Below, one piece after another: positions 10,035 to 61,744 of a stretch of 64,000 nt of DNA. The stretch is taken from IMG/VR virus record IMGVR_UViG_3300037418_000840; one strand, given 5' to 3'. Each line of letters starts with the position of its first letter. Positions within the stretch are counted from its first letter, which is position 1. This DNA is from a virus. Its lineage: Duplodnaviria; Caudoviricetes. A program made the position numbers and the translations under genes. The notes beneath the pieces were generated by a model. The model was not told where the DNA came from. It worked only from the letters and a program-made list of their open reading frames with translations, and searched no databases.

Positions 10035-10406
10035 TTAGTGAGTGTGCCAGCCAGGGAACACCGAGTCCATAATCTCAGCATAGTCAGCGAAGTCGACTAC
10101 ACAGCGAGCATCATTCTCCTGCTGGATAGGAGACATCAGGCACACGAATCCGTGCTGGACAACGAAGAACTTGTCGATCGGCGTTTCGAATGCGATGGAC
10201 AGTCGATAGGGATCGGCCGGCTGCTCTTGCCGTTCGGCAACGACATAGCCGTACAGGCCGCAGACGCCACGTTTTGTGGACGGAGGATTATCGTGCATGA
10301 ACAGGTAGTCGACACGAGTTCCGAGAAGGGACCCTGGACTGGCGACCCCACGCAGATCGATAATCTGCTGCTCGGTCAGAATCTTGGCACGCATTTCGAT
10401 GCTCAT
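10035..10406 (-). CDS. hypothetical protein
   Basis: 123-aa ORF coupled to ligase stop (ATGA overlap). Confidence 0.7.
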   Translation of the reverse strand: MSIEMRAKILTEQQIIDLRGVASPGSLLGTRVDYLFMHDNPPSTKRGVCGLYGYVVAERQEQPADPYRLSIAFETPIDKFFVVQHGFVCLMSPIQQENDARCVVDFADYAEIMDSVFPGWHTH

Positions 10407-12406
10407 AACGGAATCCTATACTTGCGGCAGAAATCCGGCCAATGCATCGCCTTGGATCCCGCCTTGTTGATCTTGTCCATGAACTTGGCACCCTTGCGCC
10501 ACAGTAGGACATCCATCTTTGGACCGTAGGACACAACCTCGCCGCCGTAGCGAACGATCGTAGCCTCTTGCTCGGTATCACGATACGATGTGAACGCAAC
10601 GTGAACACCGGTCAGCGGGCCAGTGATTGACCGCTTCTTAGCAGGAAGATCCCCGTTGACTTTGAGATACTTGGCGATAGGCTTGTACCAACGACGGAAC
10701 TGAAGGACGCCATCGTATATGATGTCGGCCGTCTTTTCACTGAAACCCTTGATCTGGGTCACCGTCGGTACGATACGCTCGGCCTTCATGTTGCAGAGGT
10801 CACGCATAGACAAGCCAGCGGCTTCCAACTGCTCGAGCTTGCGGCGGCCCATGCCACCGCGTTCGAAGCACCCGCTGGCAACCATCAGTTTCTTCAAAGG
10901 GATGGTCTTCGACAACACGTCGTGCAACGACTTGACCATGTTGTAGGCTTCGCCCTCACCGAAACCTGCGTCGACGAATCGCTGTTGGAAATCAACGATA
11001 GCCCGGGAACCTCTCACGGTCGTCTTCATAAAGAGACCTTTGCCTCTCACCACCTTTTCCTTGACTACAGGAGGAGTCATAGTGGCTACGGGTACGAAGG
11101 CGTGCGTCGTCGTGAATCCAGCGTCGTACAGTTTGGACAAGCGCTTCAATGCGAGTTGCTCGATCCCCAGGCTGGTCATGAAGTGATGGATGCCACGGAG
11201 CTCCGTCTGCTTGTCGTGATCCAGCATGTAGAAGAATCGGCCTCGGATTTCGTATGGACCCGGAGGCGGCACAAACTTTGCCTTCTTCACAACACCAACG
11301 ATCTTGGGGATGACGCCACCGCTGCGTAACACCTTGACCACCGCACCGGGACCTATTCCACGCTCCATCAGCCATGCGGGATTATGGGCTGTCGCGTTTG
11401 TAACTGTGACACCGTCCATCTTGGTTGGCGGGATCGTAATCTTGGGTTGCCAACGCTTGAGTCGTGTTTTCTGCCAGACGAAAGACTTGACCACGACCTG
11501 GTCAGCCCCCTCCTCGTCGTTGAACTTGAAGGCAACGAGCTCCTTGGGGCGATCGTTGTTCGCATAGTTGAGAACGAATCCCGAATCGGCCAAGACCAAG
11601 CCGTCCATCTCATAGACGCTAGTCTTGCGTTCAGCGTCCAACACGGCAGACAGAGTGTCTGCCGTTATGGTCGAAGGCCGGACCAAATCGTGGGCCACCA
11701 CGTTGAATCCCCATTTGCGGGCATGGTGCAGACCGCTGGCAAGCGAGTAGCCATAAACCCCGAGGACCACGAGATCGATATCTGACAGTGCCGGATGTTC
11801 CTCCTTGCGGTTGAACACACCATTGACCCCATTGCGGATATTGTCCCAACCGAGCTTGGCCCCTGCCGCCTTCTTGGTCCATTTGGCCTTGAAGGTCTTC
11901 AACTTCATCAAGCCTTCAAGGCGAAACACTACCTGCGTGGATTCCGCAGGAATCGTGGCCGGAATGAGCTTGCGTCGCAGAAGCCATGGAATGAAGAACG
12001 AGATGTCACCACCCAGAAGGCCATCACCTCGCGTGATCAACCGTGTGGGCTTTAATCGCTTGGACCGGCCCTCGTATACGAGTTGTAGACTGGTCCCGTC
12101 CAGCTTGTGCATGCGGATCCATGAAGTGATCCGACGTGCCCACGGCTTGCGCACCAACTTGGGCACGCCTTCGGGATAGAACTTATCGAGCGACGGCATT
12201 GGCTTGACCAACTCGACTTCAGTCTTCTTGTCAGCAACACGGGTCCCAGTCGCACGCAGTGGCTTCCACTTCGGATCAGCCTCACGGATCTCATCCTCGA
12301 GACGATCGAACTTGGCATCCGACATGATCGGTTGCTCGTTGTAGTAGGCGGCGCGCGCCCGCTCATACAACGCCTTCTTTTCGGCAAGCGTCTTTGCAGT
12401 TGCCAT
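10403..12406 (-). CDS. ligA: NAD-dependent DNA ligase
   Basis: Domain Ia (AYY..IMSDAKFDRL), motif I KLDG, TRGDG, DGLV, OB-fold GGVIPKI, HhH repeats, C-terminal BRCT-like region. Confidence 0.92.
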   Translation of the reverse strand: MATAKTLAEKKALYERARAAYYNEQPIMSDAKFDRLEDEIREADPKWKPLRATGTRVADKKTEVELVKPMPSLDKFYPEGVPKLVRKPWARRITSWIRMHKLDGTSLQLVYEGRSKRLKPTRLITRGDGLLGGDISFFIPWLLRRKLIPATIPAESTQVVFRLEGLMKLKTFKAKWTKKAAGAKLGWDNIRNGVNGVFNRKEEHPALSDIDLVVLGVYGYSLASGLHHARKWGFNVVAHDLVRPSTITADTLSAVLDAERKTSVYEMDGLVLADSGFVLNYANNDRPKELVAFKFNDEEGADQVVVKSFVWQKTRLKRWQPKITIPPTKMDGVTVTNATAHNPAWLMERGIGPGAVVKVLRSGGVIPKIVGVVKKAKFVPPPGPYEIRGRFFYMLDHDKQTELRGIHHFMTSLGIEQLALKRLSKLYDAGFTTTHAFVPVATMTPPVVKEKVVRGKGLFMKTTVRGSRAIVDFQQRFVDAGFGEGEAYNMVKSLHDVLSKTIPLKKLMVASGCFERGGMGRRKLEQLEAAGLSMRDLCNMKAERIVPTVTQIKGFSEKTADIIYDGVLQFRRWYKPIAKYLKVNGDLPAKKRSITGPLTGVHVAFTSYRDTEQEATIVRYGGEVVSYGPKMDVLLWRKGAKFMDKINKAGSKAMHWPDFCRKYRIPL

Positions 12407-22995: not shown

Positions 22996-24132
22996 TTACC
23001 TCGCAGGGATCACAAGTCGCTGACCAACAAGGATCAGGTTCGGGTTCGGCAAGTTGTTGCGCTGCTGGATGTCGCGATAACGCTGACCCGATCCTAGCTG
23101 CGAAGCGGCGACGCTATTCAGCGTATCGCCCTGCCGCACCGTGTACGTGTGCTCGCCAGACGACGCGGCTGTGGTCACCACCTGATTGCTGATGAAATAC
23201 TTGCGCAGCAAATCCAGATAGGCCGGGCTGTTCTTCACCTTGGCGATTGCCGAGTTCAAATAGATGAGCAACGACTGGTCACTGGCACGGACACCAATCT
23301 TGTACGAGATGGACGAGCCATCCAGCTTGGTAATCGCGAATCGCAGATCAGAGCCCTCGATCGACTTGACCGCAAATGGATAGTCGTAGATGAAGCAGTC
23401 CACCGTGTGGTTGTCCACTGCCTTGGCGATAAACTGATCGTCAGCATCGGACACCTGGACAAACGTAGTGGTCGGAAACTTACGGGCGACATAAGCCTTG
23501 ACATCGGGATCGCCTTGCAGGATGCCACAAGTACGGCCCTGAAGGTCAGCCGCCGAATGAATCGGTGATCCTTGCTGGACGATCAGAGCGTAGCCGAAGT
23601 CGTCGATGTAGGGCACACTGTAGACGACGCCGGCCGGCACGTTATCCGCAAACGTAAGGCCGTCCATCGCCACGTCAACCGTATGACCTGTCCCGTCGTT
23701 GACCAATAGCTGACGTGGGACATCAGCATAGGTGCTGACTTCGTGATGCGTGTCGATTGTCACTGCCCCGTTCTTTGCGAATTCAGGCTGGGCGAACAGT
23801 AGGTGTGCGAACTCGACGTTGAAACCGTGGGGCACGCCGTTGGCTTCGCCGTAGAATGGCTCGCTCGGATTCTCCACAGAGATGCGAACCACGCGGTTCT
23901 GCAAGATGGACTGCAAACCATCGGCTACCGGCTGGACCTGAGGTATCGCCTGTGGACTTGCTGTCGCCGGCTGTGTCGCGGTCATCGATTGGGGTCCCTG
24001 CATTGTCGCAGCGGCCACGACTTGATCGTGCTGAGTCGCAGCGTAGTGCTTATATCCGTAAAGTCCCCCGATGGCGGCCCCGGCAACAACCATGAGACCG
24101 ACAAACTTCTTGAATCGCTTCGTGAACGACAT
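22996..24132 (-). CDS. membrane-anchored amino-acid-type solute-binding protein (SBP family 3) fused to C-terminal LysM
   Basis: N-terminal TM anchor; PF....G..HGFNVE.A, YSVPY, I.SAADL.G...G...G, VD....D, Y.IGVR...L....N.AI; LysM YTVRQGDTL...NNL.NPNLI.VGQRLVIP. Confidence 0.9.
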   Translation of the reverse strand: MSFTKRFKKFVGLMVVAGAAIGGLYGYKHYAATQHDQVVAAATMQGPQSMTATQPATASPQAIPQVQPVADGLQSILQNRVVRISVENPSEPFYGEANGVPHGFNVEFAHLLFAQPEFAKNGAVTIDTHHEVSTYADVPRQLLVNDGTGHTVDVAMDGLTFADNVPAGVVYSVPYIDDFGYALIVQQGSPIHSAADLQGRTCGILQGDPDVKAYVARKFPTTTFVQVSDADDQFIAKAVDNHTVDCFIYDYPFAVKSIEGSDLRFAITKLDGSSISYKIGVRASDQSLLIYLNSAIAKVKNSPAYLDLLRKYFISNQVVTTAASSGEHTYTVRQGDTLNSVAASQLGSGQRYRDIQQRNNLPNPNLILVGQRLVIPAR

Positions 24133-37518: not shown

Positions 37519-39027
37519 TTACACCATCTTCAGCTTCTTGGTTTCGACGTCGTGCTTGAACTTGCGGTCCTTGGTCACTGCATCCATGATAGCTGACAGA
37601 TCAGTAGCAATCTTGGCGCGCGGCCGTTTGGCCCACGACTCCAATTGCTTGAGGAACTGCTGTTGTTCCTTGAGCTTGGTCTTCAACGCGTCCTGATCCA
37701 ACTTCGACAACTGGCGGACACGCAGTTCCAGGATTTGTCGCGCTTGTTCCTCGGTGATCTTCAGTGCTTTGACCAAATACGCATCGGCGTCTTTGGCGCG
37801 CAATGCCTTGAAGATCACGTCCAACTTATCGCAGGCGAAGATCAGCAGTTTGGAATACGCGATTGCCGCCTCTTGCTTGCGCTTGCGATAGGCAAGACTG
37901 CGAAGCTCTAGTTGGACACGCTCACGCAACCACGCGATGATTAGATCGGGGACCGACATGGCCTCGACCTTGTTCTCGTAGGTCGTGCGTCCGTCTTCGA
38001 CTTTGGCGCTGCGTCGAGTGACGTTGATCTTGAAGGCCACCGATTGCTGAGTCAGCCGCTGAATGCGCTTGACCCATGCTTGGTACTGCGGGAGATTGTA
38101 GGCAGGCCGGCACACGATGGTCAGTGTTGAACTGCCCTTCGTGTTCTCGCAGCGCAGCGTCTCCTTCATCGCTCGGACCTTCTCGATGAATTTCTGCAAG
38201 TTGGTGCCCTGAGGCCAGTCCGCGATGACGATCCGCTTCTTGTCGGGCTCCATCTGGATGTCGGACTCAAACTTGACGTTGGCCTCCGAATCAGTGAACA
38301 TCCGCAACCACTGCGCGCGGTTCTCCGGCGTGTTGATGAGCGTGCCACCCCACTTATGAGCGTACTTCAGAGTACGTGCGAAGTCCTTGGACGTCAACTT
38401 CTCGCCCTTGAGCAATCGCGTCAGCACTTCGATCAGAGATTCGGCAGTGAAGGCCGGTAACTTGCCAGTGATGCCGACACCAACCCCTTCGTTGGCCGTC
38501 ATCAGCACGTAGGGCAATTGAGCCGGAAGCGTAACCGGCTCGATCTCCTTGTCGTCGAAGTTCGGTACGAACGACGTGACCTCTTTGTTGAAGTAGTCAC
38601 TGTCGAAGAACGTGTAGCCGAAGTTGGACAACCGAGCGTTGGTGTACCGATAGGCTGCGGCCCCGTCGGTCATGTTCCCCCAATTCCCCTTGCCGATCAG
38701 AACTGGCGTCGGCATATGGTTCATGGTGATCATGGCACCATAGACGGACGAGTCGCCGTGCGGGTGATACTTGCCGAGTGCATCACCAACGGTACGTGCG
38801 GCCTTGACGAACTCGTTGCGCGTGTGCTGCGCCATCGCCCACATGATACGCCGTTGAACCGGCTTTAGCCCATCGAAGATGTCAGGTAGCGCCCGCTCCT
38901 CGTTGGTCTCGGTCGCATACTTCTTCATGTTGCGCAAGCCGAAGTCGCGGAGGGCTTCCTTCACGACTTGCTTGTCGGCCGTGGGCACCAGTCCCCCGAC
39001 GGTCTTTGCCTTCTTTCTTGTTGCCAT
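37519..39027 (-). CDS. gyrA: type IIA topoisomerase subunit A (GyrA/ParC-like, no CTD)
   Basis: RALPDIFDGLKPVQRRI, YHPHGDSSVY, GNWG, AAAYRYT with catalytic Tyr; 502 aa. Confidence 0.92.
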   Translation of the reverse strand: MATRKKAKTVGGLVPTADKQVVKEALRDFGLRNMKKYATETNEERALPDIFDGLKPVQRRIMWAMAQHTRNEFVKAARTVGDALGKYHPHGDSSVYGAMITMNHMPTPVLIGKGNWGNMTDGAAAYRYTNARLSNFGYTFFDSDYFNKEVTSFVPNFDDKEIEPVTLPAQLPYVLMTANEGVGVGITGKLPAFTAESLIEVLTRLLKGEKLTSKDFARTLKYAHKWGGTLINTPENRAQWLRMFTDSEANVKFESDIQMEPDKKRIVIADWPQGTNLQKFIEKVRAMKETLRCENTKGSSTLTIVCRPAYNLPQYQAWVKRIQRLTQQSVAFKINVTRRSAKVEDGRTTYENKVEAMSVPDLIIAWLRERVQLELRSLAYRKRKQEAAIAYSKLLIFACDKLDVIFKALRAKDADAYLVKALKITEEQARQILELRVRQLSKLDQDALKTKLKEQQQFLKQLESWAKRPRAKIATDLSAIMDAVTKDRKFKHDVETKKLKMV

Positions 39028-39029
39028 GT

Positions 39030-41732
39030 TCAGGCCTCAATGTTACGGACACGTCGCTTCGTGGCAGCGACTTCCCTGATCGCATCAGACAGCGGACCAA
39101 GTCTCGAGATGTTGCGCTTCTTCTCAGCGACTTTGGACGCTACCTTCTTGGTCTCTGTGGTTCGTGTGCTAACTTTCCGCGCAGGAACCTTCTTGGCAGC
39201 TACCCGGCCTTTCTTTTTACTGCCCTCGCCGTCGTCCTCCTCTTCGCCACCGACAGCGTTCTCCGGGAGACCGAAGGCTTTGCGGCGATACTGCACGTCC
39301 TCGTTCATCAGACGGACAAAGTCCACGTGGTCATCTTGCTCCAACGCCTTGATCTGAATCAGACGACGGGTCTGCGGATCCATCGCCATGATGCGCATCA
39401 GACTGGCGTCAAGCTCACCCCAACCCTTGACGTGGTTGATGGTGGTCGATGCCGGAGCCTTGAGCTTCTTCAGCTTGGCTTGGACCTCGGACAGCGTGGA
39501 CCCGGTGACCAGTGATTCCTTGTACTCGGCGTAGAACTCTGGGCTATCCGCCACGTAGACCATGCCACGTTCGAACAGGCCGGGCACATGCTTGTAGATC
39601 AAGGACAGACACAGACTGTTGATGTGACAGTTACTGGATACGACACCTGACGGCAAAACGAAGTGATGGTAGCGCGGGACCGTCAGACAGTAGACGGGCA
39701 CCGGTTGATCCAACTGCTGGATCCGCATCTTCGATACGGGGGCAAAGCCCAGACGCGTGCGATAATCACACGATGACCGGTCCTTGGTCCCACTAGCCGC
39801 CGGACAGTACACTCGGTCCCCAACCTTCAGGTCCTTGGCCTTGACGTACACCAGATCGTCACTGCCCGGGAATTCCGTCGTGTCCCGACCGTACATAGCT
39901 TCGGTCTTAAGACAGACCCAACGATGTTCCAGGCTCACCTTGTATTTGGCCTTGCCCAAGTCAAGAGCCACCAACTGATCGACGTTGCGTTCGAGGCGCG
40001 CCGTCGCATCGGCCCAGATCTCCTTGCCGTCGTGGAACACGGGCACACGGAACTGTTGATCCAACAGTTCGTCAATTCGAGTGGGGCTCATTTCGTGCCA
40101 GGACACGCCGTCCATGCTGCGTTGCTGCATGATGCGGATCTTCGTCTCACCAATGAACGGGCCGTCCGGGTCCGGGTCAGCCAGCAGGATGAGCTTGCCC
40201 ATCGTCAGTTTGGAGTACGCGTCGGCGGCCTTCGGATCAAAGCCCATCGCCGCCAAGATGTAGATGATTTCATCCGACGACGTGGCCGTACCCTTCGGGT
40301 CCTTGAGCGCGTTCTTGATCTTCCCCTTCAGCGGGAGGATCGCCTGATACGGGAACCGTGCTTCTTTGGCCGTGCCACCCGCCGAGTCACCTTCGACCAG
40401 GAACAGTTCGCGATCGCTGATCTTGACTCGGGGATCGAACGATGCGTACTTGGCAGGCAGACCACCGCGTTTCACCGCGTTGAGCTTGGACGCCGCAGCC
40501 TTACTGATCGTGAACTTGTTCTTCAGTTCAGCGATCTTGGTGGCCTTGTCGCAAATGCGCTGCGCCATCGCCTTGTTCTCTTTGAAGAACTTGGTCGTGG
40601 CCGCCACCAGCTTCTTGCGCAGGTCGGTGCCCATCCGCTCGTCCGAGAGATAGACCTTGTCCTGCGAGTTGAACTTCGCCTTGTGTAATTTGGCGTTGAC
40701 GATACCGACCAGACCCTCTTTCAGATCAGCGGCAGAGAACGCCAGTATGTCTTTCTTCTTGACCTTGCGTGTCTTGATGAACGGCCGCAGACCATCGTAC
40801 AGTGCAGCGATCACCGAGTCGACGTGTTTACCACCCTTGCTGTTGTGGCTGCCGTTGGTGAACCCGCGCAGATCGCACTCGGTGTAGCCGGAGAAGGCAA
40901 CTACCACGTCACAAGCGTTGGGATCTCCGTGTTCCGACTTGTATTCGAACATCACGCGCTCGGCACCTACACCAAACTTCTCGAGTCGCTTATGCACGTA
41001 CTCGACAACACCGGTCTTCGACAGGAACTGGCGCTTACCCTTCGGCGTCGAGATCAGAATGGCGACGCCGGGATTGAAGTACGACATGATCTCCGCCCAC
41101 TCGACTGCCAGTTGGCCTGGGAACTTGTCGGTGCTGAAGATCGACAGATCGGGTTTGACATGGATCAGCGTCCCACGCTTCGCCACCTGACCGTTCGGTC
41201 CCTTCGGAGCCTTACACTTGGCAACCGGAGTGACGAGCTTGCCCTTCTTGAAGCCGACGGTGTACCATTGGCCTTCGTAGCAAGTCCACACCGTGAAGAA
41301 TTCGGCAGTCGCATTCGTGCCCTTGGCACCGATACCGTGAGTCCCGATCGAGACTTCGTACGCCGTGTTGTCGTACTTGCCCGACGTGTGTAGCGCACCG
41401 AACACCGACTGCATGGTCGGCATCTTGTTCACCACGTCCTTGCCGTTGACATGGATCGTGGTCTTGGTGATACCCTGCGGAATCCCGTGGCCCGCGTCTT
41501 GTACCCAGAAACTGCCATCCTTGTCTACGTGGAGAAGGACTGCCGTGTTGCGACCGGCTAGAGCTTCGTCCAGGCCGTTGTCAAGCAGTTCCTTGACCAC
41601 CATCCATAGACCGTAGCTGTCCGTGCCCCCGATGTACTGACTGGCGTTACGCCGGACGCTGTCAGGAAAGACCAGCGTCTTGATGTTCGCGGCCGTATAG
41701 TTGACCTTGGCCTTAGTCGATTTGGTTGCCAT
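39030..41732 (-). CDS. gyrB: type IIA topoisomerase subunit B (GyrB/ParE-like), intein-containing
   Basis: ELLDNGLDE, DAGHGIP, LHTSGK, GTHGIG, EGDSAGG, PLKGK, DPDPDG, KGWGE. Confidence 0.93.
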   Translation of the reverse strand: MATKSTKAKVNYTAANIKTLVFPDSVRRNASQYIGGTDSYGLWMVVKELLDNGLDEALAGRNTAVLLHVDKDGSFWVQDAGHGIPQGITKTTIHVNGKDVVNKMPTMQSVFGALHTSGKYDNTAYEVSIGTHGIGAKGTNATAEFFTVWTCYEGQWYTVGFKKGKLVTPVAKCKAPKGPNGQVAKRGTLIHVKPDLSIFSTDKFPGQLAVEWAEIMSYFNPGVAILISTPKGKRQFLSKTGVVEYVHKRLEKFGVGAERVMFEYKSEHGDPNACDVVVAFSGYTECDLRGFTNGSHNSKGGKHVDSVIAALYDGLRPFIKTRKVKKKDILAFSAADLKEGLVGIVNAKLHKAKFNSQDKVYLSDERMGTDLRKKLVAATTKFFKENKAMAQRICDKATKIAELKNKFTISKAAASKLNAVKRGGLPAKYASFDPRVKISDRELFLVEGDSAGGTAKEARFPYQAILPLKGKIKNALKDPKGTATSSDEIIYILAAMGFDPKAADAYSKLTMGKLILLADPDPDGPFIGETKIRIMQQRSMDGVSWHEMSPTRIDELLDQQFRVPVFHDGKEIWADATARLERNVDQLVALDLGKAKYKVSLEHRWVCLKTEAMYGRDTTEFPGSDDLVYVKAKDLKVGDRVYCPAASGTKDRSSCDYRTRLGFAPVSKMRIQQLDQPVPVYCLTVPRYHHFVLPSGVVSSNCHINSLCLSLIYKHVPGLFERGMVYVADSPEFYAEYKESLVTGSTLSEVQAKLKKLKAPASTTINHVKGWGELDASLMRIMAMDPQTRRLIQIKALEQDDHVDFVRLMNEDVQYRRKAFGLPENAVGGEEEDDGEGSKKKGRVAAKKVPARKVSTRTTETKKVASKVAEKKRNISRLGPLSDAIREVAATKRRVRNIEA
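39630..40160 (-). mobile_element. 177-aa mini-intein with class 3 signature and Pro1, in GyrB Toprim
   Basis: In-frame insert between DPDPDG and CHI; starts PFIGET, block B SLEHRW, block F VYCLTV...HHF, ends GVVSSN before Cys+1; no endonuclease domain. Confidence 0.88.
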
Positions 41733-56602: not shown

Positions 56603-56825
56603 AAACCACGCCGAGAAATTCGGCCCATGTATGAGCTTCGCTCAGCGCATTGGCACGAACTGTAGTCTTCATTGGATATATGATTCCCTGTTCGTCAAAG
56701 ATCTTTGACTTGGCCGGTCTCTGCGATAGGTTGGTTAGCTTGACCCACCACGAAGGACCACATGATTCGCGCATGAGTGCCACTTCGACTTTGAAGTGCG
56801 GGACTTGAAGTGCTGGGATGGTCAT
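56559..56825 (-). CDS. hypothetical protein
   Basis: Start trimmed to MTIPAL, ATGA-coupled to nuclease stop. Confidence 0.6.
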   Translation of the reverse strand: MTIPALQVPHFKVEVALMRESCGPSWWVKLTNLSQRPAKSKIFDEQGIIYPMKTTVRANALSEAHTWAEFLGVVYDGQVLGETREQVE

Positions 56826-57868
56826 GCGGCCCTCTTGTAGCGTTGACGTGGATCTTGCACAGAGTTGATGATACGACGACGGATGGACCTCACGCGCTTG
56901 CGCATCTGTTCCTCGACATCCAGCGACGCAATCCATTCACGGAAGAAATCATCGGTACGAATCACAAGCTGAGTTCCTTCCTTGATGTCTTCGGTCAGGA
57001 CTGCAGCAAGATCGGCTTTGGTCTTAAAGTTCTTCAGTACCACAATGTTCTTGCGGTGAGCGTAATCTTCGGCAGACACGTCACACCCGTCCTGGATAAC
57101 GAGCTTCACCAGATCAGTTCTGCGCGTCGGTATGTTTGCCAAGTCATCGCGCGTCTGTAGAACGACCGTGTGCAACTTGTACTTCGGATCGTTCTTAATG
57201 AGACGCACGTCGTGTTCGTCCGGCGAATCGAAGGTCACGTGTGCGAAATACTTGGGCAGCTTCTCACCAAAGTTGCTCTGGTAGAGAGTGCCCATGAACG
57301 TCGTGTTCCGTACACGATGCGCGGTATGTAGGTGACCGCCCAAAGCCACGGCCTTGGACTTGCTGAGTTGCTCGTCCTTGTTGATGCGACCACTATCACC
57401 TTGCGAACCGTAGACCTCGTTGTGAAACAGGTTGAGGGCCGTAACGTCAAACGACGTGTGTGGATAGGGCAGGATACGCAACGGTGTCCCATCGATTTCG
57501 ATGGTCTTCGGCTTGGTGAAGAACTTGACGTGGCGGCCGCGATAGATACGGGCCAGCAACTGGAGCGAATGACCAGCCGATGCGTCCTCACCGTACATGT
57601 CGTGATTCCCCAAGAAGACGAGGAACTTCCGATCCGTGTAAGCGTCAAAGAAATCGACCAACGACATCATTGCCTCGTACGACATGCGGGGTCCGTCACA
57701 CACGTCGCCCATCAAAGCTATGGTCTCCACGTCTTTGCGCCGCGCATAGTCGGCAGCTTTTCCTAGCTCTCCAATGACAAACAGGTCCGGGTCCTCGATG
57801 TACTTTGCGAGGCCACCCGAACCTGTACTGTCCGTGAGATGCAGGTCACCAACAGTAACCAAGTCCAT
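56822..57868 (-). CDS. Mre11/SbcD/T4 gp47-like recombination nuclease
   Basis: VGDLHL, MGDVCD, LGNHD, FHNEV.G, GGHLH, G.L.Q.NFGE motifs and helical C-terminus. Confidence 0.85.
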   Translation of the reverse strand: MDLVTVGDLHLTDSTGSGGLAKYIEDPDLFVIGELGKAADYARRKDVETIALMGDVCDGPRMSYEAMMSLVDFFDAYTDRKFLVFLGNHDMYGEDASAGHSLQLLARIYRGRHVKFFTKPKTIEIDGTPLRILPYPHTSFDVTALNLFHNEVYGSQGDSGRINKDEQLSKSKAVALGGHLHTAHRVRNTTFMGTLYQSNFGEKLPKYFAHVTFDSPDEHDVRLIKNDPKYKLHTVVLQTRDDLANIPTRRTDLVKLVIQDGCDVSAEDYAHRKNIVVLKNFKTKADLAAVLTEDIKEGTQLVIRTDDFFREWIASLDVEEQMRKRVRSIRRRIINSVQDPRQRYKRAA

Positions 57869-59135: not shown

Positions 59136-59891
59136 TTACGCTCCGTTCTGGACTGCGTCGAGCGCGGCCAAGACCCAGAAGCGATCAGCAGCCAGTGGGA
59201 ACTTGACGTCAGCCCGCAAGACGAAGCGCGGTACGTGGAGCAACTCACGTACCCTGATTTCCTCAACCCATTCGGTAAGCGGCCGGTTGAAGACTCGACC
59301 GTGGATGTTTCGGTACACTACTTCGCAGTGACCATCGGCTTCGCATTGAGATAGGGTGATCACCTTGTAGTAGTCACCCGCCTTATAATGGGCAAAGACT
59401 TGACCGGGCTGAATCTTGTGGTCGACGTACTGGTAGTCGAATGATGGGTCGTCCATCGACAGGTAGCGTTCGAGAGGGATGGGCATTAGCTTCTCCTTGA
59501 GTGGTTGACTTTTGGCTTGGGCTTGAGCTTGTCGTGCTTTGGTGATTATATGATTGAGGACCGGCCACAGGTCAGGATGGACCAGGAAGTACGGCTTCTG
59601 CCCAGCGAATTGAGATGCGCCTGTTGGCCTTACGTCAGTGATCTTGGATGGATCGATGAGGTAGAGACTTGGCTTGCGCTCCATTCCATGTTCGGCGTTG
59701 AGCCGGCGTTGTTGTCGATCGTGGTACATCACGGTGTGCCACCAACGCTTTCGGTGCTGGACCTTGGGACCTATGACTCGGGTAGCGAGTACCGATTGAT
59801 GGACATGAATCGTTGTCAGATCAACATCTTGGTTTCGACGCAAACATTCGTGACCGATCAGGTCGATAACTTCCAGTTCTTGGTCTGTCAT
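59136..59891 (-). CDS. DUF1653-domain fusion protein
   Basis: C-terminal G....HYK.G.YY.V...........VVYR......F.RP..EW.E.....PRF; start trimmed to MTDQEL. Confidence 0.75.
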   Translation of the reverse strand: MTDQELEVIDLIGHECLRRNQDVDLTTIHVHQSVLATRVIGPKVQHRKRWWHTVMYHDRQQRRLNAEHGMERKPSLYLIDPSKITDVRPTGASQFAGQKPYFLVHPDLWPVLNHIITKARQAQAQAKSQPLKEKLMPIPLERYLSMDDPSFDYQYVDHKIQPGQVFAHYKAGDYYKVITLSQCEADGHCEVVYRNIHGRVFNRPLTEWVEEIRVRELLHVPRFVLRADVKFPLAADRFWVLAALDAVQNGA

Positions 59892-61744
59892 GAGGGCACC
59901 TTCTTGGTTGACCACTTCTTCTGTTCATCACGCTCTTTGATCAGAGCTTGAATGCTCGATTCCAATTCTTGAATCCGCGCTTCGTTACCTGCTTTCTTGG
60001 CAGTGGACCGCATACTTCGAAGTGAGTTGAGCTGGCTTGCTATTGGATCACTCCGAATCTTCTGCCACTCTTTTCGTTTGGCCGCCGCCCGACGTTCCTT
60101 TTTGGTCCCGTTAAGCGCGGCCTCCTCGGCTCGACTCAAGTTAGTTGTCCACGTGACATAGTTCCCGAGTTTCTTGGTGATGTCACGACGTATGATTGGT
60201 GCATGATTCATCTGACGAGCGATCGATTCAGCCATCTTCATGGTGGATACGATGGCCAACATCTTCTCATCGCTATCGTGGTTTCGTATGTTACCGCGCC
60301 CAATACACTGGACAGCCTTGTCGATCACGTAGTCCTCATCAGCATCGTATTCTGGTATGATAGCGTTCAGAATCGTAGATGTCTGTGGAGTCGGGTTGAC
60401 CGCTGCCAGGAAGACCACGAGGTTGCTACTCTGATACCCGTTGTTTCCTTCAGCCTTACCTAAGCTGACTTTCGTGAACAATCGCTTGCTGGTCGATACG
60501 TCTTCGTCGTTCTTGTTGAGGAACAACAATCCTTTGTGCGGTTGCCCATACTTGGAGAACCATTGGCGAGCCAGTCGTTCGGCGGTCCGTAGCTGCCAGT
60601 CGAGGATACTGGTCTGCGCGCGAAGCTCACCAAACTTGATCACGAGCTTTCGATGATTGTCCTTGAGTATGCCTGCGTTGAATACGGGGTCTTTCAGATG
60701 CGCAACGACATCGCGCATGTCACCAGTTGCAATTCCAAGTTCGTTCTTCGTTTTGGTCAGGGCCAACACGTTTTTCTTTGGTAACACAACTCCTGAGCTG
60801 AGTTGATATTTGGAGGGTACTCCAGTATCAGCTAACAGCGGTACGAGTTCAAGTTTAGACTGACGCTCACCGATGGCATCCAATGCCATACCGTATCCCT
60901 GATCCAGATACGTGTTCATGAAGGGACGAGTCACATTTTGGAGGATGATGTTCTCGCTACGGAACAAGTGGTACATCTGGCTACGCTCAAAGGCCGCCGA
61001 AAGAATATGGACATCTTTGAATCCAACGAACGGATGACTCGGTAGCATAATCTGTAGCATGACCTTGCCATTTGTGACCGCATAGACACGGAGTCGAACC
61101 GGACCCGCCCCACTCGAAAGGCTAGTGTGTAACATGTCTAACTTCTTGAATTCACGAGCGCTGTGCTTAGTGGAGATCAGATGACGCTTTTGGTTTTCGG
61201 GCACTGCACGCGCGACGAGCTCGTTGATTCCGGCATAGTCTTTGAGTGGACGAACGACGAACAGCGCATTGAACAAGTCCTTGACTCCAGGCTCGTCCAT
61301 GCGAAGTGTCTGTTGAACTACCCACTTGCGACTCTCATCGAATATAACCCGTGTCTGTCCAAACTTCTTATGACGTTTCAGTTTGAGAAACGTTGCGTGG
61401 GTCAAGAATAGGATGGATCCATGAACGAAGGGCTCGATGTCCAACTTCGAATCGTGACGTCCGTTCAACAGAGCATAAACTTGATGTTCGGTACGATCAC
61501 GGCCCATAGTCTGTTCGGAGCCACGAACGGCGCGAATGAACGAATGTAGCTTTCGTGGTAGTCGTTCGTGCAGTCCAGCAATAGTCTGTCTCAATAAATC
61601 GAGAGTTGGTGCCACGTAGAAGATGTAGCCAACCGGATCACCGGAGGCACCAGACTTGACGTGACGACGCATGAGTTCGAGGCACGCTCGAGTCTTGCCT
61701 GTTCCGGGAGGTGCGTCAACATAATTGACAACGAGGTCTTTCAT
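59888..61744 (-). CDS. superfamily 2 helicase-like ATPase, possible origin-binding or replication protein
   Basis: Motif I DAPPGTGKT, Ia YVAPTLDL, Ib LTHATF, II IFDE, VI QCIGRGNIR; basic C-terminal tail. Confidence 0.75.
   Translation of the reverse strand: MKDLVVNYVDAPPGTGKTRACLELMRRHVKSGASGDPVGYIFYVAPTLDLLRQTIAGLHERLPRKLHSFIRAVRGSEQTMGRDRTEHQVYALLNGRHDSKLDIEPFVHGSILFLTHATFLKLKRHKKFGQTRVIFDESRKWVVQQTLRMDEPGVKDLFNALFVVRPLKDYAGINELVARAVPENQKRHLISTKHSAREFKKLDMLHTSLSSGAGPVRLRVYAVTNGKVMLQIMLPSHPFVGFKDVHILSAAFERSQMYHLFRSENIILQNVTRPFMNTYLDQGYGMALDAIGERQSKLELVPLLADTGVPSKYQLSSGVVLPKKNVLALTKTKNELGIATGDMRDVVAHLKDPVFNAGILKDNHRKLVIKFGELRAQTSILDWQLRTAERLARQWFSKYGQPHKGLLFLNKNDEDVSTSKRLFTKVSLGKAEGNNGYQSSNLVVFLAAVNPTPQTSTILNAIIPEYDADEDYVIDKAVQCIGRGNIRNHDSDEKMLAIVSTMKMAESIARQMNHAPIIRRDITKKLGNYVTWTTNLSRAEEAALNGTKKERRAAAKRKEWQKIRSDPIASQLNSLRSMRSTAKKAGNEARIQELESSIQALIKERDEQKKWSTKKVPS

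Follow-up and report, generated by a model that had tools for sequence, protein, structure and literature searches.

A predicted Pro1 mini-intein with a class 3-type signature in the Toprim metal-binding loop of a phage GyrB-like topoisomerase subunit

The window analysed here, a 64,000-nucleotide stretch of the Caudoviricetes record IMGVR_UViG_3300037418_000840 (IMG/VR), includes the gene of a GyrB/ParE-like protein, the large subunit of a type IIA phage topoisomerase, and the reading frame of that gene contains a 177-residue insert that is a genuine HINT (hedgehog/intein)-fold intein. Its sequence features predict a functional mini-intein that has long been resident in the phage gyrB-like gene, and they are best read as those of an intein that probably splices by class 3 chemistry, in which a cysteine in block F, and not the intein's first residue, is the initial nucleophile. 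The insert adds a new and so far unannotated member to an already known kind of intein and reveals no new mechanism, and its position in GyrB, within the metal-binding motif of the Toprim domain, is apparently undescribed.

The DNA encoding the insert (Table 1) is free of stop codons, and its translation runs from PFIGET to GVVSSN (residues 525-701) between the flanks LLADPDPDG and CHINSL, as expected from the initial annotation, which had described a 177-residue in-frame insert between DPDPDG and CHINSL. Removal of the insert restores the DxDxDGxHI motif, as had also been claimed: five homologues that lack the intein (P0072, P0077, P0096, P0098 and P0089), in which DPDPDG is joined straight to [C/S/R]HINSL, align with a gap that corresponds exactly to residues 525-701. 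Pfam recognises HATPase_c, DNA_gyraseB, Toprim and DNA_gyraseB_C in the 900-residue precursor, NCBIfam gyrB/parE models match it with E-values down to 1e-103, and the matches to Pfam Toprim and to the NCBIfam gyrB models are interrupted at residues 526-527. The DxDxD loop of the Toprim domain binds the catalytic Mg2+ of type IIA topoisomerases. Because the insert splits this loop, the active enzyme should require splicing.

Structure prediction recovered the HINT fold that the initial annotation had anticipated. An AlphaFold2 (AF2) model covering residues 519-707, built from an alignment of 91 homologues, has a mean predicted local distance difference test (pLDDT) score of 93.9 and a predicted template modelling (pTM) score of 0.89. 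Foldseek returned 51 Protein Data Bank (PDB) matches to this model at E<=1e-3, every one of them an intein, a bacterial intein-like (BIL) domain or a hedgehog domain, and VIA-align gave Z scores of 14-17 against more than 50 solved inteins (the top example, Ssp DnaB, aligned over 141 residues with Z 17.1 and a root-mean-square deviation (rmsd) of 2.2 A). In many of these pairs, including those with the class 3 inteins 6bs8, 6rix and 6zgq and with many class 1 inteins, model residues 7 to 183 (Pro525 to Asn701) pair with the solved intein from its residue 1 to its last, and the boundaries of the insert are thus independently confirmed. In profile searches, the NCBIfam model TIGR01443 (intein_Cterm), which describes the C-terminal part of inteins, matches at 22.7-24.8 bits where its cut-off is 15.6, Pfam Intein_splicing (PF14890) matches with E 2.7e-5 at 24.4 bits, under its gathering cut-off of 35.8, and a sequence profile of the family described below matches solved inteins with a best E-value of 6.9e-11. 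No homing endonuclease domain was found in the insert, as the initial annotation had stated, and the splicing fold takes up all 177 residues. The GC content of the intein (0.578) is the same as that of the exteins (0.576), so there is no compositional sign of recent invasion, and the intein would appear to be an old resident of the gene.

The window intein belongs to a family. Searches of large protein collections identified about 96 proteins that carry an intein at the same site, and in every same-site hit for which the host protein was examined the host was GyrB-like. In IMG/VR, 14 loci with the same-site intein lie on viral contigs of 57-263 kb, mostly 170-263 kb. A tblastn search of phage genomes found the same insert only in the GyrB proteins of Ralstonia phage phiRSL1 and Burkholderia phages BcepSaruman and BcepSauron, whose records annotate just a 'type IIA topoisomerase' and no intein. 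A megablast search with the gene against 50,697 phage records gave no match, relatives being detectable only as protein, and no relative emerged from representative genomes spanning 185,579 species of bacteria and archaea when these were searched with the junction patterns of this family, which would miss other same-site cellular inteins. The intein family was found only in phage, mostly jumbo-phage, sequences. The literature, covered incompletely and with InBase outside its scope, describes no intein at the DxDxDG↓[S/C]HI position of GyrB (an arrow marks a splice junction) or in the GyrB proteins of phiRSL1, BcepSaruman or BcepSauron. The earlier suggestion that the site might be new therefore stands in the sense that it is undescribed, but the same intein is present, unannotated, in these three phages and in about 95 metagenomic proteins.

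All of the diagnostic residues named in the initial annotation (Pro1, the SLEHRW and VYCLTV motifs, Ser at G:5, a penultimate Ser, a terminal Asn and Cys at +1) are present in the window copy. We counted the residues at these positions in 91 same-site mini-inteins, whose identity to the window copy lies in the range 26-69% (Table 1). The remaining three cysteines of the window copy are each conserved in just 11-23 of the 91 members. At the 16 loci for which DNA was available, synonymous codons vary at Pro1 (CCG, CCC or CCA), at Cys F:4 (TGT or TGC), at the terminal Asn and at Cys+1, and the Ser at G:5 is encoded by both the TCN and the AGY codon families. In intein-free homologues, the residue equivalent to +1 is of eleven kinds (C, S, K, Y, L, R, W, H, N, A or Q). 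Residues held constant through synonymous codon change, together with a +1 position that is free to vary in intein-free alleles, indicate that the catalytic set is selected only where the intein is present, the pattern that would be expected of an element obliged to splice. Some intein-free alleles (P0072, P0084, P0088, P0090, P0095 and P0096 (Burkholderia phage BCSR5)) have Cys at +1, in the sequence DPDPDG-CHINSL; these may mark places where an intein was precisely lost, or may be sites ready for homing.

Class 1 splicing requires Cys, Ser or Thr at position 1, and the residue at this position is Pro525, which is unable to undergo an N-S acyl shift or to form an N-terminal thioester; class 1 chemistry is therefore excluded. 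Class 3 inteins are defined by the lack of an N-terminal nucleophile together with Trp at B:12, Cys at F:4 and Thr at G:5; their +1 residue is usually Ser or Thr, and Cys F:4 is their obligate first nucleophile (PMC2807308, PMC5222942). Standard inteins commonly have Asp at F:4, Cys at this position being the class 3 nucleophile (PMC2807308), and the proposed class 3 catalytic triad consists of His B:10, Cys F:4 and the hydroxyl-bearing residue at G:5 (PMC7664689). The window intein combines a non-nucleophilic first residue (Pro525) with Trp605 at B:12 and Cys682 at F:4. By this chemistry, Cys682, activated by His603 (B:10) with Trp605 and Ser699 (G:5), would attack the Gly524-Pro525 bond and would come to bear the N-extein as a thioester branch. 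Trans-thioesterification would then move the N-extein to Cys702 (+1), cyclisation of Asn701 would free the intein, and an S-to-N shift would yield ...DPDPDG-CHINSL.... Only after splicing would the DxDxD site be contiguous, and formation of an active topoisomerase with the adjacent GyrA-like subunit would then be possible. We infer this order of nucleophiles from the sequence, and the intein is placed in class 3 by its signature, as distinct from homology or experiment.

Several observations weigh against class 3 chemistry. The signature claimed in the initial annotation is partly borne out: Pro1, Trp B:12 and Cys F:4 are those of class 3, but G:5 is Ser699 in place of Thr, with the hydroxyl retained, and +1 is Cys702 in place of Ser or Thr. 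The penultimate His is also absent from the window intein, its position being occupied by Ser700. Cys F:4 is kept in relatives that begin with Cys1 as well, so that within this family its presence does not track the absence of an N-terminal nucleophile. When the family profile was compared with the PDB, class 1 inteins came first (Pho RadA, the 6.9e-11 match), and the 38 matches at E<=1, nearly all intein or BIL domains, included no solved class 3 intein. Alignment of the profile with the intein of mycobacteriophage Bethlehem by hhalign spanned 16 block B columns at a probability below 1%, which is not significant. With respect to the +1 residue, Ser or Thr appears to be typical of class 3 rather than obligatory, because the Burkholderia vietnamiensis Bvi IcmO intein, which has Cys+1, is experimentally class 3; a 2016 paper gives it as the sole class 3 intein with Cys at this position. 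A penultimate residue other than His is common among active phage inteins (PMC5050341).

Comparison with known inteins shows where the likeness lies. The Bethlehem intein (MP-Be DnaB) is the class 3 prototype and begins with Pro1 (PMC2807308), and the initial annotation was right to cite it as the precedent for a proline in this position. In AY500153 it is located in gp11 (L004:7680-8702) and is absent from the annotated DnaB-like helicase region of that record. It resembles the window intein in Pro1, an S-x-x-H-x-W block B, a VPV-x-C block F, a hydroxyl-bearing residue at G:5, a terminal Asn and phage origin, and the two can be placed in register (P-L-x-x-x-T with P-F-x-x-x-T, SASHGW with SLEHRW, LTHN↓T with VSSN↓C, and VPVKC, containing Cys320, with VPVYC, containing Cys682). 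It differs in its length of 341 residues, which include an endonuclease domain, in Thr+1, Thr G:5 and His G:6, and in its host, a 903-residue gp11 annotated as hypothetical in which it follows Gln-1, and which is no topoisomerase; its overall sequence similarity to the GyrB family is not significant. The Bvi IcmO intein, compared by description, is likewise a class 3 mini-intein without an N-terminal nucleophile and with Cys+1, but its host protein is the plasmid IcmO.

Among solved class 3 inteins, Msm DnaBi1 (6bs8), MchDnaB-1 (6rix/6riy) and AceL NrdHF (6zgq) share the HINT fold of the AF2 model with Z scores of 14.3-14.8 and rmsd values of 2.0-2.6 A, and have a Cys-His-Thr triad of their own (PMC7664689). 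Their fold scores are no better than those of class 1 inteins (Z 17.1 for Ssp DnaB), and VIA-align scores thus fail to separate the two classes; Msm DnaBi1 differs further in having Ser as its +1 nucleophile (PMC6195587). The GyrB inteins of phiRSL1, BcepSaruman and BcepSauron are true homologues at 44-47% identity with the identical site, Pro1, VYCLTV and S[S/A]N↓C, which differ from the window copy in having Phe at B:12 where the window copy has Trp.

Variants within the family bear on the role of residue 1. All 96 same-site inteins were placed in a maximum-likelihood tree, which is unrooted so that the direction of change cannot be read from it. In this tree, four inteins that begin with Cys1 form a clade with a support of 95, nested within a clade with a support of 98 (Shimodaira-Hasegawa-like approximate likelihood ratio test, SH-aLRT). 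This larger clade comprises both HNH-bearing and mini same-site inteins, HNH-bearing ones with Pro1 among them, and Pro1 and Cys1 forms alternate within it while Cys F:4 remains constant. Cys1 and Pro1 members of the clade are nearly alike near the N-terminus (for example, CWSANTKVLLCDGT versus PLDANTKVLLCDGT). That Pro1 and Cys1 can be exchanged without loss of the element suggests that residue 1 is dispensable as a nucleophile, as would be expected if Cys F:4 attacks first. Five same-site members of 418-458 residues contain an HNH_3-type insertion, which in three of them exceeds the Pfam cut-off, and endonuclease-bearing relatives of the mini-inteins therefore exist at the same site. Two further same-site members of 208-215 residues, P0073 and P0078, form a divergent Pro1 subgroup on a very long branch of the tree; they end in ...FLCHN↓C, with Cys at G:5 and His at G:6, and are the sole members with a penultimate His.

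The DnaB/TerL class 3 lineage and the GyrB inteins may or may not be of common descent. It seems unlikely that the DG↓C family of GyrB represents an origin of block F cysteine splicing independent of that lineage. If an independent origin were true, the interconverting Cys1 and Pro1 forms, some of them with HNH insertions, would bridge in nature the step from class 1 to class 3 chemistry, a transition that engineering work has judged improbable (PMC7664689).

Both catalytic nucleophiles in the family are cysteines, and nearly universally so, which raises the possibility, in line with the gating proposed in the initial annotation, that the F:4/+1 pair also works as a switch, responsive to redox state or to metal, by which topoisomerase maturation is held back during infection. 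If it does, jumbo phages would have in this all-cysteine pair a redox-timed control of that maturation. There is a precedent in class 3: when Msm DnaBi1 is exposed to H2O2, its F:4 residue, Cys118, becomes disulfide-bonded and splicing is paused (PMC6195587). The partner in that disulfide, Cys48, has no conserved equivalent in the GyrB family, however, and only the two catalytic cysteines are conserved, leaving no dedicated partner cysteine. Moreover, all cysteine-dependent inteins are sensitive to oxidants and Zn in vitro, so that sensitivity alone is no proof of a biological role, and we regard such a switch as doubtful.

A functional intein could also splice by a class 2-like route, in which Cys702 (+1) would attack the Gly-Pro junction directly, as in the KlbA inteins with Ala1, leaving Cys F:4 with a structural or at most an assisting role. 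The +1 residue typical of class 3 inteins is Ser or Thr (PMC5222942); the GyrB family, with no N-terminal nucleophile and with Cys+1 in 88 of 91 members, resembles class 2 in both respects, which counts against class 3 chemistry, and the persistence of Cys F:4 in Cys1 relatives indicates that this residue is not tied to loss of the residue 1 nucleophile. Yet Cys F:4 is invariant (91 of 91), along with an equally invariant His B:10 and with Ser or Thr at G:5 in 89 members, and in the class 3 Bvi IcmO intein Cys+1 failed to substitute for Cys F:4. Three members, moreover, have Ser+1 together with Pro1 or Cys1, and direct attack of Ser on an amide is unlikely. The only inteins known to undergo direct attack by their +1 residue are those of class 2 (KlbA) (PMC5222942). 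On balance we consider the class 2-like route quite improbable and class 3 chemistry the better account. A HINT domain that has decayed or been exapted, and is now either retained as a non-splicing insertion domain or able only to cleave, is a very improbable account of the insert: the missing penultimate His, the initial Pro and the Intein_splicing score below its cut-off (24.4 against 35.8) could be taken as signs of decay, but active phage inteins often lack the penultimate His (PMC5050341), the Pro1 intein of Bethlehem splices efficiently (PMC2807308), the insert breaks a catalytic DxDxD loop that intein-free relatives keep whole, and across deep divergence, with synonymous codon change, the family has conserved Asn, Cys+1, His B:10 and Cys F:4.

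The window intein lies between Gly524 and Cys702, at DxDxDG↓[S/C]HI in the Toprim metal-binding motif. In phage GyrB relatives, inteins occupy at least two other positions, EGDSAGG↓T and, within the ATPase domain, SIG↓THGIG, and the inteins at these positions are class 1 elements of 142-494 residues with Cys1 and with Thr or Ser at +1, some of them with HNH. They occur in P0008, P0012, P0030, P0050, P0059, P0080, P0088, P0092-P0094, P0127, P0131 and P0150, sometimes coexist with the DG↓C intein, and number, together with it, up to three per protein, P0127 being occupied at all three sites. In the window gene, both SIG↓THGIG (Thr131, ~41340-41342) and EGDSAGG↓T (Thr454, ~40371-40373) are empty. 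The initial annotation had placed the Synechocystis GyrB intein after EGDSAGG, which is consistent with the engineered Ssp GyrB junction (GG↓...VHN↓SAG; PMC2794532) and with the class 1 inteins of the phage relatives. The Ssp GyrB intein shares its host protein family with the window intein, and differs in its site (EGDSAGG↓, with the junction ...VHN↓S) from the DG↓C position.

Table 1. Coordinates of the intein, its host gene and the partner gene in the 64,000-nucleotide window, with residue counts for the 91 same-site mini-inteins
Feature	Position	Strand	Basis	Residues in the 91 mini-inteins
GyrB/ParE-like large subunit precursor of phage type IIA topoisomerase, 900 aa + stop	39030..41732	-	Open reading frame (ORF) translation; Pfam and NCBIfam matches	
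N-extein, aa 1-524, ending in Toprim motif LLADPDPDG with Gly at -1	40161..41732	-	Gly-1 in 91/91 family members	-1: Gly 91
Mini-intein, aa 525-701, 177 aa, HINT fold, without endonuclease	39630..40160	-	Translation, TIGR01443, AF2 model, gap alignment	
Pro1, codon CCG, aa 525, non-nucleophilic	40158..40160	-	Pro in 88/91; structural alignments begin here	1: Pro 88, Cys 3
Block B core His603-Arg-Trp605 (B:10-B:12) in SLEHRW; Ser600 is B:7	39918..39926	-	Family counts, Bethlehem register	B:7: Ser 41, Asp 29, Thr 16, Ala 5; B:10: His 91; B:12: Trp 48, Phe 42, Leu 1
Cys682, intein residue 158, F:4, in VPVYCLTV, proposed first nucleophile	39687..39689	-	Cys in 91/91	F:4: Cys 91
Block G end: Ser699 (G:5), Ser700 (G:6, replaces His), Asn701 (G:7)	39630..39638	-	Family counts	G:5: Ser 86, Thr 3, Cys 2; G:6: Ser 56, Ala 14, Gly 14, Lys 5, His 2; G:7: Asn 91
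Cys702, +1, first C-extein residue, replaces Ser of canonical DxDxDG-S-HI	39627..39629	-	Cys in 88/91	+1: Cys 88, Ser 3
C-extein, aa 702-900 + stop: CHINSL..., GyrB C-terminal domain, acidic/basic tail	39030..39629	-	Translation, Pfam, alignment	
GyrA/ParC-like small subunit, 502 aa, adjacent, partner of spliced product	37519..39027	-	Pfam DNA_topoisoIV (PF00521), E 1.6e-73	

The gyrB-gyrA gene order of the window is the same in BcepSaruman and phiRSL1. The 502-residue GyrA-like partner has a single Pfam match, DNA_topoisoIV, over residues 45-468, and Pfam detected no C-terminal DNA-wrapping domain on it, on which grounds the enzyme is presumably nearer to topoisomerase IV or to T4-type topoisomerase II than to a supercoiling gyrase. 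In phiRSL1, a free-standing HNH-AP2 endonuclease gene (ORF332, L002:1887-2429) lies directly upstream of the intein-bearing gyrB, and a small ORF (ORF334, L002:5086-5439) lies between gyrB and gyrA; neither arrangement was seen in the window or in BcepSaruman. No intein domains were found in ten larger ORFs of the window. Other replication and repair genes met in this screen of large ORFs, none of them with an intein domain, encode an NAD-dependent DNA ligase-like protein (10403-12406), a metallophosphoesterase (56822-57868), a DEAD/ResIII helicase (59888-61744) and an SBP_bac_3-LysM fusion (22996-24132), all on the minus strand.

Class 3 inteins are rare. Those known in 2010 were in helicase-type ATPases and terminases (PMC2807308), and later papers add IcmO, NrdHF and RecB as hosts. 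The family described here, with about 96 members, occupies an apparently undescribed position, in the loop with which a type IIA topoisomerase binds its catalytic metal, and three reference phage genomes (phiRSL1, BcepSaruman and BcepSauron) have their annotation corrected by it. It supplies many natural cases of a class 3-type signature with Cys+1, as compared with one in the 2016 literature, and its coexisting Pro1 and Cys1 variants, with and without HNH, are material for studying how the class 3 pathway evolved. As compact, endonuclease-free inteins with an unusual junction tolerance (Gly-1/Pro1), its members are also of practical interest for protein engineering.

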